From Candidatus Hydrogenedentota bacterium (GTDB lineage: Bacteria; Hydrogenedentota; Hydrogenedentia; Hydrogenedentales; SLHB01), in NCBI GenBank assembly GCA_963668025.2, contig CAXXTH010000017.1:832001-896000 (forward strand): a stretch of DNA of 64,000 nt, written 5' to 3'. Below, piece by piece: positions 16,565 through 62,072 of this stretch. The notes beneath the pieces are model-generated. The model searched no databases and had not been told where the DNA came from. It saw only the letters and a list, made by a program, of their open reading frames with translations. The translations under genes and the position numbers were made by a program. The number at the start of each line of letters is the position of its first letter. Position 1 is the first letter of the stretch.

Positions 16565-17934
16565 GGGTGCTCCCTCAATATGATAACCTCAATTGACCCC
16601 GTGGCGGGCCACGTGTTGCCAGAACTGGTCCCAACGGCCCTCGGTCATCTCCAGCGACCTGAGCGCGATCACCGCGCTCGCGCCCGCTTCCTTCCACCGC
16701 ATCCCGGAGCATGCCAGGCGTTGCTTGATCAGCGTCTTGCACGCCGCCTCCGTCACTCCGCTGCCGATGGGAAGGCGCTCCGCCGTGTGCCGCCAGTATT
16801 GCATCTTCGAGCGGTGATTGCCGAAGTAGGTGATCGCCTTGCCGAGTTCCTCGCGGCAAGCCTGGGCGCGCACGCTTGGCAAGCTCGCCTTCATCTCCTC
16901 CAGCAAGCGTCCGGCTGCGCCCCTCGTGTGCTTCAGCCGGTGACTCCAGTCCGCCTCCCACTCCCGGCGGCGCGCGCCATGACCGTGAATCGCCTCCGCC
17001 GCCTTCCCCACGTATTCCCGCGCGTGATAGAAATCCAGCATCTGCCGGTCCGTGCGCGGCGTCAAAAACTTCCAGTTGTCCGGCGCGCCGTCGGCCAGGC
17101 CGATATACAGCGCCGCCGGGTGCCTCGCCCTCACGCGCTCCACCTCGCGGCCGAAGCGCTCGAGGAAAGTCTGCTTGCCGTACTCGGGCGATGCGCCCGC
17201 GTAGATCGTGTGCAGCCGCTCCCCGTCCTTGTCGTACAGGCTGATGGACCCGCACATCGCCTGACGCCAGCCGTCCTCCCTGAGCAGCATGCAGGTGCCG
17301 TCCAGGCCCACGGCCACCGACGCGACCGGCCTGTCCAATTCCGGCAGCTCGTACTCCCACGTCTCCTCCCTGGCCTGCGCCAGGGCGCCCACAAAATCGC
17401 CGATCTTCTTCACATAGTCGCGCGAGATTGCGCGGCCTGTCGACTCGAGCAGGTCGCGGCGCATGACATCGGCGCCCATGCGGGAGTATTTTCCGCTGAC
17501 GATCCGGGCGTAGCGCGGCGTGGCGTTCATGACCATTCGCGCGTCCCGCTCCAGCGGGCAGAAGGTGCGCCCGCCCGTGGCGGTGTTCTGGTAGACGTGC
17601 CGCTCGACGCGGACCGGGCCGTGGGGCGTCTCGTAGGTCTGGCCGAAGCGCCCCTTGGTTTTGAAGGTGGTGGCGCCGACGCGGATGGGCGAGCCGTCTG
17701 TGTCGAAACGGGCCAGGGCCTCGGCCATGACTGCGCGCCCCACCCCGTTCAGGGCCTCCTGGACCGCCTCCTCCATATCGAGCATCGAACCACGCAGCCT
17801 CAGCGAGAAACTCACCTCGAACGTGTCGCCGTCGCGCCTTGTCACCATCGCTGCCATCGGTCTTCCTCCGTTAAGGGTCCGGCATACTTATCGACCCGAC
17901 ACGAGGATTTCTTTAGCATTCTGCGGGAACACCC
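16565..17934 (-). mobile_element. ISKra4-family insertion sequence, 1370 bp
   Basis: 8-bp direct repeat CTTAAACC at 16557-16564 and 17935-17942. Terminal IRs GGGTGCTCCCTCAATATGATAA / GGGTGTTCCCGCAGAATGCTAA (17/22 identical). GC-rich element inside AT-rich DNA. Confidence 0.9.
16589..17857 (-). CDS. ISKra4-family DDE transposase
   Basis: GLDGT, LADGA, LDFYHAREY, LPIGSGVTEAACK...SGMRW motifs. Confidence 0.9.
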   Translation of the reverse strand: MAAMVTRRDGDTFEVSFSLRLRGSMLDMEEAVQEALNGVGRAVMAEALARFDTDGSPIRVGATTFKTKGRFGQTYETPHGPVRVERHVYQNTATGGRTFCPLERDARMVMNATPRYARIVSGKYSRMGADVMRRDLLESTGRAISRDYVKKIGDFVGALAQAREETWEYELPELDRPVASVAVGLDGTCMLLREDGWRQAMCGSISLYDKDGERLHTIYAGASPEYGKQTFLERFGREVERVRARHPAALYIGLADGAPDNWKFLTPRTDRQMLDFYHAREYVGKAAEAIHGHGARRREWEADWSHRLKHTRGAAGRLLEEMKASLPSVRAQACREELGKAITYFGNHRSKMQYWRHTAERLPIGSGVTEAACKTLIKQRLACSGMRWKEAGASAVIALRSLEMTEGRWDQFWQHVARHGVN

Positions 17935-48537: not shown

Positions 48538-50196
48538 ATGGACATTAATGTCAGCATTGTCGATCAGCGCCTGGCGGGCCTGATGGATGAGTATGCCGCT
48601 TCCCTGCCCGGAGAAGGAGATCTAGTTAAGCGCAAATCAGCGGCGTTTGTATTGCTCAGCATGGCCTCCATGCTGGATATACCGCTGGATGAAGCGCTGG
48701 AGCTCTTGACGGAGGGAGGCGGCGATGCGGGTGTGGACGGTCTTCATATTGGTGAAGTGCTGAACGATGAATTTGCCGTGACATTGTTTCAAGGCAAATA
48801 CAAGCAAGATCTGAGCGGCGAGGGCAATTTTCCGGAAAACGACATACGCAAGATGATCAATACGGTTTCCGTGCTGTTTGATCCCCAAAAAGTCGTGGAG
48901 CTGAATCCAAAACTAGCCCCAAGAATCGAGGAGATCCGTTCGCTGGTTCGGGATGGATACATCCCCAACCTCCGGGTTGTGTTTTGCAACAACGGAAAGC
49001 CCTGGACTAGCCAGGCCCAGGCATGGATAAACCAATCAGGACTCGATCCGCAACAGGTGGAGTGGGTTCATTGGAACCATGATTCCATCGTCTCGGTCAT
49101 GCGAAAAAAGAAGGCGGTGGCCCACACCCTTCGGTTGACCGGGAAAGCGCTCGTCGAGGATTTCAATTTTCGGCGGGTGCTTGTTGGGAAAACACCAGTA
49201 ACGGAAATCGCCGACTTATTCCGGGAGCACGGGGATTTATTGCTGGAACGCAATATTCGCCGGTACCTGGGCCTTCGCGCCAACCGGGTCAATTTTGATA
49301 TCCATAGAACCTTACGAGATCCCAAACAGCGAGAGAATTTTTACTTCTACAACAATGGCATCACCATCATCTGCAAGAAATTCCGGCATAACGCCCTGCA
49401 AGGGGAAAACTACCAAGTCGTACTCGAGGACATGCAGATCATCAATGGCGGGCAAACGTGCAGGACTATCCAGCAAACTCTCGCTGATCCAGAATTGTTT
49501 GATCAATTCGACCAGGTGTATGTGCTGGTGCGTATCTACGAGTTGTCCGATGATGACCGTTCTTTTGTTCAAGCTATAACCTATGCTACCAATAGCCAAA
49601 ATCCCGTTGAACTGCGGGATCTGCGCTCGAACGACGAGATCCAAGTCCAGTTGGAATTGGGCATGAAGGAACTAGGATATACCTACAAGCGGCAGCGCGA
49701 TGATTCTGTAACGGGCGACAAGGTGATCACTAGTTCGGCGGTGGCGGAGAGCGTGCTGGCGATCTGGCGACATCTTCCTCATCAGGCCCGGCACCGGCGT
49801 AAGGAGCATTTCGGCGCTTACTACAATATGATTTTTAGGGACCTGAACGCCGCCCAAGCCGTGCTTGCGGTGTTGATCATGCGGTATGTTGAAAATGAAC
49901 GCAAAAGGCCTGCAATGACGAATCCGCCTCGCTTTCTCCCATATGCGTCGCACTATATTGCGATGTTAATAGGTATTTTTCTTACACAAAGTGAATCTCT
50001 GGAAATCACACATAGGAATTTTGGTGAATTAGTGCAATCATTCAACCAAAAAGTAGATGATGTCTATTTGAACGCTATTGCGCTCCTCGATAGGGCCATG
50101 GGGGCTTTATATGGGGATAGGCAAGTATCGTTACAGCAATTATCAGCTACCTTTCGCCGTGGAGATCTGTTATCTTTTGTGTTGAAGCCGCAATAA
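48538..50196 (+). CDS. AIPR-family (abortive infection phage resistance) protein
   Basis: GGGDAGVDG...FQGKY; [11 protein letters not shown]; [10 protein letters not shown]; QIINGGQT; [14 protein letters not shown]. Confidence 0.88.
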
Positions 50197-51608: not shown

Positions 51609-53502
<1,894 letters not shown>

Positions 53503-53552: not shown

Positions 53553-53604
53553 CCGTAGCATGGCCGTCTCGGCCATGCACATGGGCGGGACGCCCATGCT
53601 ACGG
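53553..53604. repeat. REP doublet (family A)
   Basis: GTAGCATGGCCGTCTCGGCCATG and inverted CATGGGCGGGACGCCCATGCTAC. Confidence 0.75.
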
Positions 53605-56623: not shown

Positions 56624-56795
56624 CAGGTGTCCCGTCATTTGGCGCAATAAATGTGTTGTATAGTGTCCCAAAACAAGGGCGAAATACAATAGTTTCCCGC
56701 TTCTGGGCGGGAAACAGGCCGAATGCGGCCAGCGCTTCATTGTTTTCCGCCCGGAATAGTTTTCAACTGTTTTTACTTGTACTTAAGAATTTTGC

Positions 56796-56823
56796 TCAAG
56801 CCCGCCATCCATTCTGCCGATAT
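56796..56823 (+). promoter_or_regulatory. Sigma28 (FliA)-like promoter
   Basis: TCAAG(56796-56800)-N15-GCCGATAT(56816-56823), close to the TAAA/TCAAG-N15-GCCGATAA consensus, 36 nt before ATG 56860. Confidence 0.6.
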
Positions 56824-56859
56824 ACGTAATGGACAACAGCTATAATCAGGAGACATGAG

Positions 56860-58278
56860 ATGGGGAACAGCCTAGTTTCGCCACTTTTAGACGCGTCCAT
56901 ATTGGGAGCGCGCACGCAATCCTTGCTTGCGGAATTACTCCAGCGCTTGAATCATTCGAGCGATACCACGGAGGCCACAGAGTCCACGGACACGGCGGCC
57001 GCTGTTCCCACGGATACTTTGGGTGCTAACCAAGACGCCCAAGTCGATGATGCGTTTCAATCTTCGGTATATCAATCCAAGATGCAGCGCGTCTCCCTGG
57101 CCGTCCAGTTGCAGCAAGTGCGTACCCGGATCGGCGAGTACATCGAGCAAAACAGCGACGCCGAGGGCAGCGAAACGGATGCGGGCGCTTCGGACACCGC
57201 CGCCACGGCGGAAGCGAAGCAGCTCAAGTTCGACTTTTTCGCGGAGACCCGCTCGGTGGAACTGGCGCTATTTCAACAGCGCACGGATGCGGTGGCCAGC
57301 AAAGTGGGTGGCGAACAGGGCCAGCAATTCACCGCCGTCAGCCAGCAAGTGAGTTTCCGGTTCCAGATGTCCCTCGAGATCACCGGCGCGGCCCTGAGCG
57401 GATACGCGGGTGCGGCGGAGAACCTATCCGACAGTTCCAGTGACGCCTTGGATACGTTCATGAGTTTCGCCAATGATTTGCTCGAAAAAACGAACGATTT
57501 CATGAACCAAGCCCTCGAGATGCTCCAAGGATTCTTCTCTGGCGGCGAAACCAATATCCAAGACCAACTGAATCAGTTTCTGCAAGGCCTTAGTGATATT
57601 GGTTTTCTCAATTTGGACAACATTCAAGGCCTCACTTCTTCGGATGACGCATCCAGCCAGGCTGCAAACACTCAAAACGCAAATACGCAAAACGCCACCG
57701 TGCAAGTCATGGGCATGAGTTTCAACATTGAAATTCAAATGGAATTTGCGTTTTCGTATGAAGAGTTAGGTGTCCAGCAATCTGATCCCATTACCTTCGA
57801 TCTGGATGGAGATGGCGTTGAGCTCACCGGTTACGCCAATGGCGCGAATTTCGATATCACTGGCAGCGGCCAGAAGGTAAATACCGCATTTGTGGAAGGC
57901 GGCGACGCTTTCCTGGTCTTTGATCGCAACAACAATGGCTCCGTGGACAACGGGAAGGAGTTGTTTGGCGACCAGAATGGAGCCAGCAACGGCTTCGAGG
58001 AATTGCGCAAGCTCGATTCCAATAAAGATGGCGTCATTGACAGCAATGATAAAGATTTCGCCCAGCTCAAGCTCTTCAAGGATAACGGCAACGGCATCAC
58101 GGAAGAGGGCGAATTGGTCTCGCTAGCCGATGAAGGCATCACATCCATTAGCCTCGGTTACAAGGATGTAGACGAGGCAGCCGCCAACGGCAACCGCATC
58201 ACGCAAACTGCTTCGTTTATCCGAAACAATGGACGTTCCGGGCGAGTGGTGGACGCTGTTCTTAATTATTTGGCGTAA
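56860..58278 (+). CDS. Protein with C-terminal FrpC-type Asp-Pro self-processing module
   Basis: S-D309-P310-ITFDLDGDGVE...DRNNNGSVDNGKELFG...LDSNKDGVIDSND...ELVSLADEGITSISLGY...NGN. S/T/Q/A/D-rich N-terminus, no signal peptide, no RTX repeats. Confidence 0.8.
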   Translation: MGNSLVSPLLDASILGARTQSLLAELLQRLNHSSDTTEATESTDTAAAVPTDTLGANQDAQVDDAFQSSVYQSKMQRVSLAVQLQQVRTRIGEYIEQNSDAEGSETDAGASDTAATAEAKQLKFDFFAETRSVELALFQQRTDAVASKVGGEQGQQFTAVSQQVSFRFQMSLEITGAALSGYAGAAENLSDSSSDALDTFMSFANDLLEKTNDFMNQALEMLQGFFSGGETNIQDQLNQFLQGLSDIGFLNLDNIQGLTSSDDASSQAANTQNANTQNATVQVMGMSFNIEIQMEFAFSYEELGVQQSDPITFDLDGDGVELTGYANGANFDITGSGQKVNTAFVEGGDAFLVFDRNNNGSVDNGKELFGDQNGASNGFEELRKLDSNKDGVIDSNDKDFAQLKLFKDNGNGITEEGELVSLADEGITSISLGYKDVDEAAANGNRITQTASFIRNNGRSGRVVDAVLNYLA

Positions 58279-58295
58279 GAATAGAGGTGACAATT

Positions 58296-58365
58296 GTGGC
58301 ATGGGCGTCTCACCCATGAAGCGCCGGATTTAGCGTTCGCTTCATGGGCGAGACGCCCATGCTAC
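58296..58365. repeat. REPIN (family A REP pair)
   Basis: GTGGCATGGGCGTCTCACCCATG...CATGGGCGAGACGCCCATGCTAC. Confidence 0.75.
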
Positions 58366-58450
58366 ATATGAATATGAAAAATCACTTTGTTCTTCATTCC
58401 TCTAGGCGCTTCGTTTTGATACAATACTTTTCCGGAAAGGGGATGGTGTT

Positions 58451-60621: not shown

Positions 60622-61221
60622 ATGAATACACCTATCGAGAGCAGTGAGTTCGTAAAACTCATCGAAGCGCATCGCGACGAGTTCTACCGGTATGTGAAGC
60701 GCATGCTGTGGGAACCGGGCGCGGCGGATGATGTGTTCTCATCCGCCGTATTGTCGGCCTACGAGAACTTGCCTCGATTCGAGCCTGGCACGAACTTCCG
60801 TGCATGGGTTTTTCGGATTCTAACCAACAAGTGTTTCGTGGCCAACCGCGAAACGGCCCGCGCACCTCAGCCGTTGGATGATTCCTTCGATGAGACGTGG
60901 GCCGCGGTGCAAGAGGGTCCCGATTACACGGAGATGCTCGATGAGCCCATGAGGGTGCTCGATGCCTGCGGCGGCGAAGTGTATAACGCCTTTCGCCTGT
61001 TGTCGGCGGCGGAGCGTTCATGTTTATTATTAAAGGCTATCGAAAGTTTTTCGTACAAGGAAATCGCCGAGATACTCGATATGCCGGAAGGAACAGTGAT
61101 GACGCATTTAGCCCGAGGACGCGCGAAACTGCGAAAGGAATTGCTCGATTATGCGCGTGAAAGGGGCATCTTGGGCCGCGCCTCGAACCGTACGGAAGAT
61201 AAGCCGGAGGGTGGGATATGA
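60622..61221 (+). CDS. ECF sigma factor (SigR/SigH-like)
   Basis: RFEPGTNFRAWVFRILTN and FSYKEIAEILDMPEGTVMTHLARGR. Confidence 0.9.
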   Translation: MNTPIESSEFVKLIEAHRDEFYRYVKRMLWEPGAADDVFSSAVLSAYENLPRFEPGTNFRAWVFRILTNKCFVANRETARAPQPLDDSFDETWAAVQEGPDYTEMLDEPMRVLDACGGEVYNAFRLLSAAERSCLLLKAIESFSYKEIAEILDMPEGTVMTHLARGRAKLRKELLDYARERGILGRASNRTEDKPEGGI

Positions 61222-61979
61222 CCGTGGGCCGGGATGAACAGCGTTATCTGGATGGCGAAATGACGGACGCGGAAGCCACGGCCTTTTGGGAGGCGTTGCC
61301 AGAGCCGGAACAAGAACGGCTGAACAAGGAGCGCCGTTTTGAAGCCGGCTTGAAACAGGTGATGGACCAGGATGTGGGATGCCCGGACGCCGCATGGCGG
61401 CGTCTCGAATGGCAATTGCAACATAAGCGCCCGGCAAGCCGTTCTAGCGTGGTGCGATGGACGCTTCGATTCGCCGCCGCCGCCGTGGTGGCCGCAGGCG
61501 TCTTGTTCGCCATGCGCCAAGCGGATGCCCCGGAGAGCAGTGAGGCCTTTTTGCGCGTGGCGGAAGCCAATGTAACGGATTTCGCCCAACATGCCCAAAC
61601 CGAGCAGCCTACCATCGAGCACGTGCGGCGTTTCCTGTCCGAACGAGGCTTTTCCATCCAATTGCCTGCCGAGGAAGCGCTGTCCAACCGCACCCACGAA
61701 AAAATACACCTGCTGGGTGCGCGTTGCGAGTCTTGTCCATGCGAGGACGTAGGTGAAATTCTCTTCGACTGCTGCGGGCAGCCGGTGAAGATCGTCATGG
61801 CGCACAAAGGGGGCCGGGCGGCGGATTTGTTGAGTAAGGCGCATTCCAACCACGCATGCAACTGCGAAGTGCAGCGCGTGGAGGAAATAGGCGAGTACAT
61901 CGTGGCCGTCGTAGGCCGGCACCCGTCGCCACAACTCCTGGAGCTTCTCGCCGCAAGCCCTTCAACGGACCCTACTTAA
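61218..61979 (+). CDS. Putative membrane anti-sigma factor with Cys-rich C-terminal domain
   Basis: ATGA overlap with the ECF gene; YLDGEM N-terminus; one TM; CESCPC, DCCG, HACNC. Confidence 0.7.
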   Translation: MTVGRDEQRYLDGEMTDAEATAFWEALPEPEQERLNKERRFEAGLKQVMDQDVGCPDAAWRRLEWQLQHKRPASRSSVVRWTLRFAAAAVVAAGVLFAMRQADAPESSEAFLRVAEANVTDFAQHAQTEQPTIEHVRRFLSERGFSIQLPAEEALSNRTHEKIHLLGARCESCPCEDVGEILFDCCGQPVKIVMAHKGGRAADLLSKAHSNHACNCEVQRVEEIGEYIVAVVGRHPSPQLLELLAASPSTDPT

Positions 61980-62005: not shown

Positions 62006-62072
62006 GCATGGGCGTCCCGCACATGAAGAGACGTCTTTAATGCATGCTTCATGGGCGAGACGCCCATGCTAC
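62006..62072. repeat. REPIN (family A REP pair)
   Basis: GCATGGGCGTCCCGCACATGAAG...CTTCATGGGCGAGACGCCCATGCTAC. Confidence 0.7.

Follow-up and report, generated by a model that had tools for sequence, protein, structure and literature searches.

A short protein without RTX repeats that ends in an FrpC-type self-processing module and lies under a sigma28-type promoter in a Candidatus Hydrogenedentota bacterium: a possible flagellum-exported clip-and-link protein

The window, i.e., the whole stretch of 64,000 nucleotides of a Candidatus Hydrogenedentota contig that was analysed, contains a stand-alone gene for a protein whose C-terminal part is a predicted self-processing module (SPM, Table 1). 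The upstream neighbour is a divergent gene for a GAF histidine kinase, while downstream a palindrome with 29-bp arms, which may be the transcript end of the SPM gene, is followed by a sigma54 response regulator. No flagellar genes were found within the window. The M-G start is frequent in the best 120 of 221 homologues. A leader ORF of nine codons (56829-56858) has its stop one base 5' of the SPM start codon, and two GGA motifs are present in the leader of the SPM gene, which we take to be of the kind bound by CsrA in flagellin mRNAs. Elsewhere in the window, a REP-like palindromic repeat was seen at five places (13414, 21547, 53559-53598, 58295-58366 and 62007-62068; 11 strand matches versus 0.03 expected), often as paired arms between genes. 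A group II intron (51692-53468) is located directly before mutY, beside REP-like repeats; Rfam matches to D1-D4 lie at 51692-51979, and an ORF for its reverse transcriptase/maturase occupies 52005-53468. Also observed were a lone AIPR-family gene after rho (48538-50196) and a gene for an ECF sigma factor, accompanied by one that probably encodes an anti-sigma factor (60622-61979).

Table 1. The SPM gene and its parts, with positions in the window
Feature	Position	Strand	Remarks
Sigma28/FliA-type promoter	56795..56823	+	-35 CTCAAG at 56795-56800, 15-nt spacer, -10 GCCGATAT at 56816-56823
Ribosome-binding site AGGAGA	56848..56853	+	6 nt 5' of ATG; from the sequence
CDS P0001, non-RTX protein with terminal SPM	56860..58278	+	472 aa
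Residues 1-57, variable low-confidence leader without hydrophobic core	56860..57030	+	model and conservation
Residues 62-246, conserved all-helical domain	57043..57597	+	conservation and AF2 model
Residues 291-300, conserved Q-[LM]-E-F-x-F motif	57730..57759	+	after variable linker; unstructured in the monomer model
Asp309-Pro310, predicted scissile bond	57784..57789	+	equivalent of FrpC D414-P415
Self-processing module, Pfam PF26745 SPM	57787..58275	+	reaches the stop codon; sequence and fold matches
Inverted repeat, 29-bp arms, REP-like	58295..58366	.	3' of the SPM gene; copies elsewhere in the window

An earlier note, made from the letters of this DNA, had read the C-terminal part as an FrpC-type SPM in a protein without RTX repeats, and both points were borne out. 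Residues 310-468 align with the FrpC SPM (6SJW) at E 1.3e-26, and among solved sequences 6SJW and 6SJX were the only two matches (E about 1e-26). The same two structures were the only ones matched by the AF2 model at E<=0.001 (Foldseek, E about 1e-13), and the superposition on 6SJW gave Z 22.3 and an rmsd of 1.7 A over 150 aligned residues (VIA), at an identity of this SPM to FrpC of ~40%. The precomputed Pfam 38.1 annotation assigns PF26745 to the query and its homologues; against our copy of Pfam-A and NCBIfam, the 472-aa protein had sub-cutoff matches only, with three weak Pfam hits. The count of GGxGxD repeats is zero. The ORF holds a single Asp-Pro, at 309-310, from which 164 aa (D309) or 163 aa (P310) remain to the C-terminus, and the module ends at the stop with no tail after it.

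The residues of the module were checked by comparing the 6SJW alignment with the ones named by Kuban 2020 (PMC7078468). The equivalents of the Ca2+-loop residues (D419/D421/D423/D456, D462-E474, D499-D510 and D521-E532), of D478 and D579 at the fifth Ca2+ site (D371 and D465 in this protein) and of the "narrow port" (L475/G477/G491/L582) can all be found in the protein, and they hardly vary among the best 120 of 221 homologues. Two departures were found, namely that the last Ca2+ loop, D521-E532, is one residue shorter than in FrpC, and that the T-shaped Trp pair W451/W519 of FrpC is replaced by F344/F406, still an aromatic pair, of which F344 is kept in 120 and F406 in 95 of these best 120. 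A Gly preceding the Asp, which blocks FrpC cleavage (PMC7846742), was found in 4 of the best 120 of 221 homologues and in several loci. Judged by its residues, the integrity of the predicted SPM is well supported.

The Asp-Pro dipeptide is kept in all of the best 120 of 221 homologues, in 78 of 79 loci of the genome scan (a count made without one locus cut by a contig end) and in 198 of 200 further short proteins, which were obtained from searches limited to 163-555 aa and none of which has RTX repeats. The profile search returned 27,799 representatives at E<=0.001, and 132 of the 146 new representatives listed contained several SPMs, in 99 cases together with RTX repeats. Within such large proteins, only 43 of 312 near-complete SPM-like domains start with Asp-Pro, so the fold alone does not preserve the dipeptide. 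The other 269 have AP, SP, PP or TP in its place, and these Asp-less repeats are apparently non-cleaving; in many of the giant RTX-type proteins (P0121-P0266), 2-4 domains of SPM fold were seen, for the most part close to the C-terminus. Since the fold tolerates the loss of the Asp, its retention in the short class would imply selection for cleavage. It is conceivable that the module of the 472-aa protein is itself an inactive Ca2+-binding domain of SPM fold, as the Asp-less copies presumably are, given that non-cleaving uses of the fold exist and that the Trp pair is replaced here. Against this, not only the Asp-Pro but also the D478 and D579 equivalents are near-invariant throughout the short class, and we consider an inactive domain extremely unlikely.

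The proposed sigma28-like promoter was confirmed as an exact site, with TCAAG at 56796, a 15-nt spacer and GCCGATAT at 56816, 36 nt 5' of the ATG and with AGGAGA in between. The sigma28-type consensus, which we take to be TAAA(G)-N15-GCCGATAA, was checked on E. coli K-12 flagellar loci. A strict pattern near this consensus (T[ACT]AAG-N14/15-GCCGA[TA][ATG]), chosen after the family loci had been viewed, was applied to 300-nt upstream windows and was found 5' of 51 of the 59 family genes, versus 4 of 5900 shuffled windows. Within 2.39 Mb it has 64 matches, 56 of which precede an SPM gene; of the remaining eight, two are located 5' of flagellin genes. At the locus L031, three flagellins and FlaG are encoded downstream of the SPM gene, at L039 a flagellin is encoded upstream of it, and in both cases each unit has its own promoter site. 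Thus, the conservation upstream of homologues that the earlier note had asked about is found at 51 of 59 loci and extends to flagellin genes at these two, which speaks strongly for the promoter. The flagellins concerned (L031:11046-14480 and L039:8810-9631) are minimal ones of about 270 aa, and the three tandem flagellins of L031, with flaG, adjoin two large secreted-type repeat proteins.

A position weight matrix (PWM) was built from the 51 sites, with the 99th percentile of 757 control upstream regions as threshold. The site in the window scores 23.8, above all 757 controls (maximum 17.0). Family loci passed in 57 of 59 cases, including six of the eight outside the training set, and two failed. 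For the distant relatives from other phyla, whose starts were hand-picked (L042 and L062, with no clear start, were left out), 12 of 18 passed, 11 of 18 being the safer count because the pass of L080 looks like its ribosome-binding site. Seven of eight E. coli flagellar/chemotaxis promoter regions passed as well. Among the Pseudomonas relatives, which are 255-aa proteins, the ones with an annotated 45-residue N-terminal extension show T-Q-x5-A-D-I in 8/9 and A-D-I in 9/9 of those listed, as would be expected if a -35/-10 pair had been translated. No sigma70-type promoter was found on the + strand, where a lone TATAAT occurs at 56841-56846. Taken at the level of upstream DNA, sigma28 regulation of the SPM gene appears well supported. 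A second sigma28-like site in the window (17888-17916, - strand, PWM 17.0), inside a PIN-domain gene and upstream of a 422-aa ORF without Pfam match, is possibly due to chance. Regarding the host, Ca. Hydrogenedentes is listed among the phyla with flagellins in a figure legend (PMC7018530), and a paper on Hydrogenedentota MAGs has no word on bacterial flagella.

In total, 221 homologues were obtained at E<=0.001, the best 120 having 40-54% identity over 76-100% of the length, and the phylum-named members among these best 120 are Ca. Hydrogenedentes. The genome scan covered 80 of 106 loci, 59 of which have the N-terminal domain in common; some of the 59 bear titles such as Nitrospirales, yet group in the tree with Hydrogenedentota sequences. 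The other loci among the 80 combine different N-terminal parts with a C-terminal SPM, and their record titles name Omnitrophota, Sumerlaeota, Riflebacteria, Armatimonadota, Planctomycetota, Myxococcota, Bdellovibrionota, Fibrobacterota and Gammaproteobacteria. Forms of 255-311 aa occur, among other cultured carriers, in Ectopseudomonas mendocina, E. composti, Marichromatium bheemlicum and Fontimonas sp., and the Atlas clusters of SPM proteins of 320-452 aa include members from Pseudomonadota and Bacillota. A quick tree, computed without FrpC from 46 short sequences, the first 30 of the 43 DP domains and 25 random ones of the 269 non-DP domains, placed the 46 short sequences on one side of a branch and the 55 large-protein domains on the other (SH-aLRT 96), a grouping that is partly by construction, since shared patterns had served to collect the short rows. 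Plasmid searches gave 166 and 173 matching records; in the five plasmid SPM proteins inspected, 88-1540 residues follow the module and none is of the short class. One partial match was obtained in the phage collection. By eye, the distant short SPM proteins (L065, L068, L073, L074, L076 and L080; P0379, P0418 and P0362) share a brief amphipathic N-terminal motif, Q/L-I/L-L/I-R/K-x-x-L/F, and an alternating Ser/Gln/Glu-hydrophobic stretch directly ahead of the Asp-Pro. A chemotaxis cluster (cheA, two cheW and MCP; L068:2052-7967) lies two genes off the gammaproteobacterial homologue. In the neighbourhoods of the SPM loci (80 of 106), no conserved operon or frpD-like partner gene was found; LptF/G recurs in ~20 of these loci and a bifunctional nuclease in 14.

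As to the export route, simple hydropathy and motif tests, rather than a trained predictor, were used. The claim that a Sec signal is absent held, with a hydrophobic N-terminal stretch in just one of the best 120 of 221 homologues; a twin-Arg was seen in three of these, an early Cys in five and a transmembrane-like segment in none. By the same tests, the 472-aa protein has no Sec, Tat or lipoprotein signal, and its N-terminus is variable and disordered. The FrpC SPM binds Ca2+ at about 150 uM and is active only outside the cytosol (PMC7078468), and by analogy an active SPM would have to be exported. The mean biosynthetic cost of the SPM protein is 20.9 versus 23.5 for 404 neighbouring genes, only 2.2% of which have a lower cost (flagellins, 19.2-19.4), as expected for an extracellular protein. 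Given the late flagellar promoter and a leader that is variable and disordered, export by the flagellar type III system requires the fewest assumptions, and we infer this route for the 472-aa protein, with residues 1-57 as the candidate export signal. It might also be that the protein is co-regulated with flagella and leaves the cell by another exit (vesicles, lysis or an unlinked type I system that recognises the C-terminus) or acts in the periplasm, considering that its flagellar export is deduced by exclusion only and that some type I substrates have no RTX repeats. Moreover, flagellar export signals are without consensus (PMC5223770). However, the module stops four residues past the L582 equivalent and thus leaves no room for a type I tail, in contrast to the five plasmid SPM proteins, which carry tails after the module. 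In addition, no type I exporter is among the conserved neighbours (LptF/G and the bifunctional nuclease), and Bacillota are among the Atlas clusters of similar short SPM proteins, which makes such an alternative exit very improbable in our view. For flagellar type III export of the 472-aa protein, precedents exist in the Campylobacter Feds, which are sigma28-dependent, non-flagellar and flagellum-exported proteins (PMC5223770), and, as regards Ca2+-triggered self-cleavage in type III substrates, in NopE with its MIIA domain (PMC6506597).

The N-terminal part (residues 1-308; 49% S/T/Q/A/D) had been described as low-complexity. This is true for the stretches 2-57 and 250-290, which are variable among the best 120 of 221 homologues (mean top-residue frequency of 0.21 and 0.16), but not for the helical domain in between, where residues 113-190 are conserved (0.61) and residues 131-250 are modelled as a confident helical bundle (AF2, block pLDDT 82-96). 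Also conserved in the best 120 are residues 291-300 (0.67), whose Q-[LM]-E-F-x-F motif resembles a Q-L-x-F-x-F motif at 121-126. For the N-terminal domain, Foldseek gave no match at E<=0.001 and Atlas gave matches at or below 0.81 only; with VIA, run on the whole model, the domain matched mostly designed helical repeats with Z<=9.7, within the helical-bundle background. The searches thus yielded no natural solved relative of the modelled domain, but this is not evidence of a new fold. The helical domain is the candidate target-binding part. Lysine makes up 2.3% of the N-terminal fragment versus 3.7% of the background, and in 55 of the best 120 of 221 homologues the last 50 residues of the fragment have no Lys. 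These data do not point to a fixed self-cross-link: no lysine of the fragment is conserved (its frequency stays at or below 29% in every alignment column of the best 120), and the residue as such is slightly underrepresented.

Taken together, a modest preference can be given to the explanation that this gene stands alone, belongs to the late flagellar regulon and encodes an exported clip-and-link protein that acts as a covalent tether. FliA/sigma28 would almost certainly transcribe the SPM gene together with flagellin, as suggested by the upstream sequences. The SPM would remain unfolded in the Ca2+-poor cytosol and the protein would probably exit via the flagellar type III channel by means of its N-terminal leader. 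Once outside, external Ca2+ would, very probably, fold the SPM, upon which the Asp309-Pro310 bond would break and Asp309 would be converted to an anhydride, a step taken over from FrpC chemistry, the residues needed for it being conserved. In the least certain step, for which we see a little better than an even chance, the 309-aa fragment would be placed by the helical domain and form an isopeptide bond to a lysine of a nearby protein, giving the tether. The partner could be the own filament or surface, a matrix protein or another cell; with no partner gene, no conserved lysine and N-termini that diverge between phyla, no target is indicated.

This last step is where two further explanations part from the tether. 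Within the same regulon and export route, the module could clip without linking, as a Ca2+-triggered release switch or an export-competent pro-domain, the anhydride being hydrolysed and the freed helical fragment working non-covalently. The quick reaction of the anhydride with water (PMC12538545), the absence of both a partner gene and a conserved acceptor lysine, and the variable linker ahead of the scissile site would agree with it. Nevertheless, the scarcity of lysine in the fragment fits avoidance of self-capture, a conserved motif is found 10-18 residues ahead of the Asp, and every tested SPM homologue both cleaved and ligated (PMC12538545), so that clipping alone seems unlikely. Alternatively, the protein might be a filament-exported accessory part of the flagellum that cross-links flagellin or the cap, or self-polymerises as a coat. 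Such a role would suit the co-regulation with flagellin, the adjoining flagellin genes of L031 and L039 with their short products, and a protein that is helical and Cys- and Trp-poor; yet a flagellin is nearby in only 2 of the 80 related loci (80 of 106) and in none of the other 78, no flagellar protein is among the fold-search matches listed, the N-terminal parts differ widely between phyla in length (about 95 to 310 aa), and a conserved lysine for self-linking is missing. We consider an accessory part quite unlikely.

Extending the tether explanation to the family, it is a tentative proposal, to which we give slightly less than an even chance as a whole, that the widespread, so far unrecognised short-SPM branch represents a conserved "covalent glue" of the late flagellar regulon, an anhydride protein armed by Ca2+ and exported via the flagellum, with a lineage-specific N-terminal domain that picks the target. 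The glue would either cross-link the filament or attach it, or the cell, covalently to a surface, to matrix or to partner cells, and it would be found in Ca. Hydrogenedentota, Sumerlaeota, Riflebacteria, Armatimonadota, Myxococcota/Bdellovibrionota and Gammaproteobacteria, and possibly in Bacillota. So far, clip-and-link chemistry has been described for large RTX proteins that host-associated bacteria secrete by type I systems (PMC7078468, PMC3034196). If the proposal is true, the compact SPM would move it into general motility-to-attachment biology across several phyla, the sigma28 regulon would gain a conserved non-structural gene, and covalent modification of flagella or of the biofilm matrix would become possible. 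The clade is also a source of many divergent Trp-free SPMs for protein ligation of the NeissLock type.

The SPM domain itself is already known, and Pfam 38.1 labels these proteins as PF26745. In the relevant passages of Kuban 2020, the SPM is described as "exclusively present" in a subset of RTX proteins (PMC7078468), and an RTX review treats it likewise as a trait of RTX proteins where it touches on the module (PMC3034196). The NeissLock work dealt with FrpC, FrpA and homologues of at least 60% identity to FrpC (PMC7846742, PMC12538545). A literature search of titles and abstracts, with subscription journals mostly outside its reach, returned no description of non-RTX or flagellar-regulon SPM proteins. 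Short PF26745 proteins of Pseudomonadota and Bacillota, for instance MDS_3680 of Ectopseudomonas mendocina and a Marichromatium bheemlicum protein, whose N-terminal parts differ, have database labels only ("VCBS repeat", "calcium-binding" or "SPM domain-containing").

Among the known systems, the closest are FrpC and FrpA of Neisseria meningitidis and ApxIVA of Actinobacillus pleuropneumoniae, with which the 472-aa protein shares the fold, the sequence pattern and the Asp-Pro site, as well as the four Ca2+ loops, D478/D579 and the port residues of PF26745. In contrast to FrpC and ApxIVA, which exceed 1000 aa, the protein described here is 472 aa long, has neither RTX repeats nor a type I tail, carries the SPM at its extreme C-terminus, has Phe-Phe instead of the Trp pair and no frpD-like partner gene, and comes from an environmental host in which a sigma28-type promoter takes the place of iron regulation. 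Ca2+-induced folding and self-cleavage are also known for the MIIA domain of NopE1/NopE2 (Bradyrhizobium) and VIC_001052 (Vibrio coralliilyticus); NopE is secreted by a type III system and VIC_001052 is linked to one (PMC6506597). MIIA, however, lacks a classical Ca2+-binding motif and constitutes a domain family of its own, and the type III system concerned is non-flagellar (PMC6506597). It is not among the three weak Pfam hits of the 472-aa protein, and the SPM fold accounts for the module. Finally, no sequence relation is expected with Feds, Cia and FspA of Campylobacter or YplA of Yersinia, for none of which the passages on them mention covalent clip-and-link activity (PMC5223770), whereas their export through the flagellum without a Sec signal is the very route proposed here, and the Campylobacter Feds also share with our proposal the sigma28-dependent co-expression with flagellin (PMC5223770).
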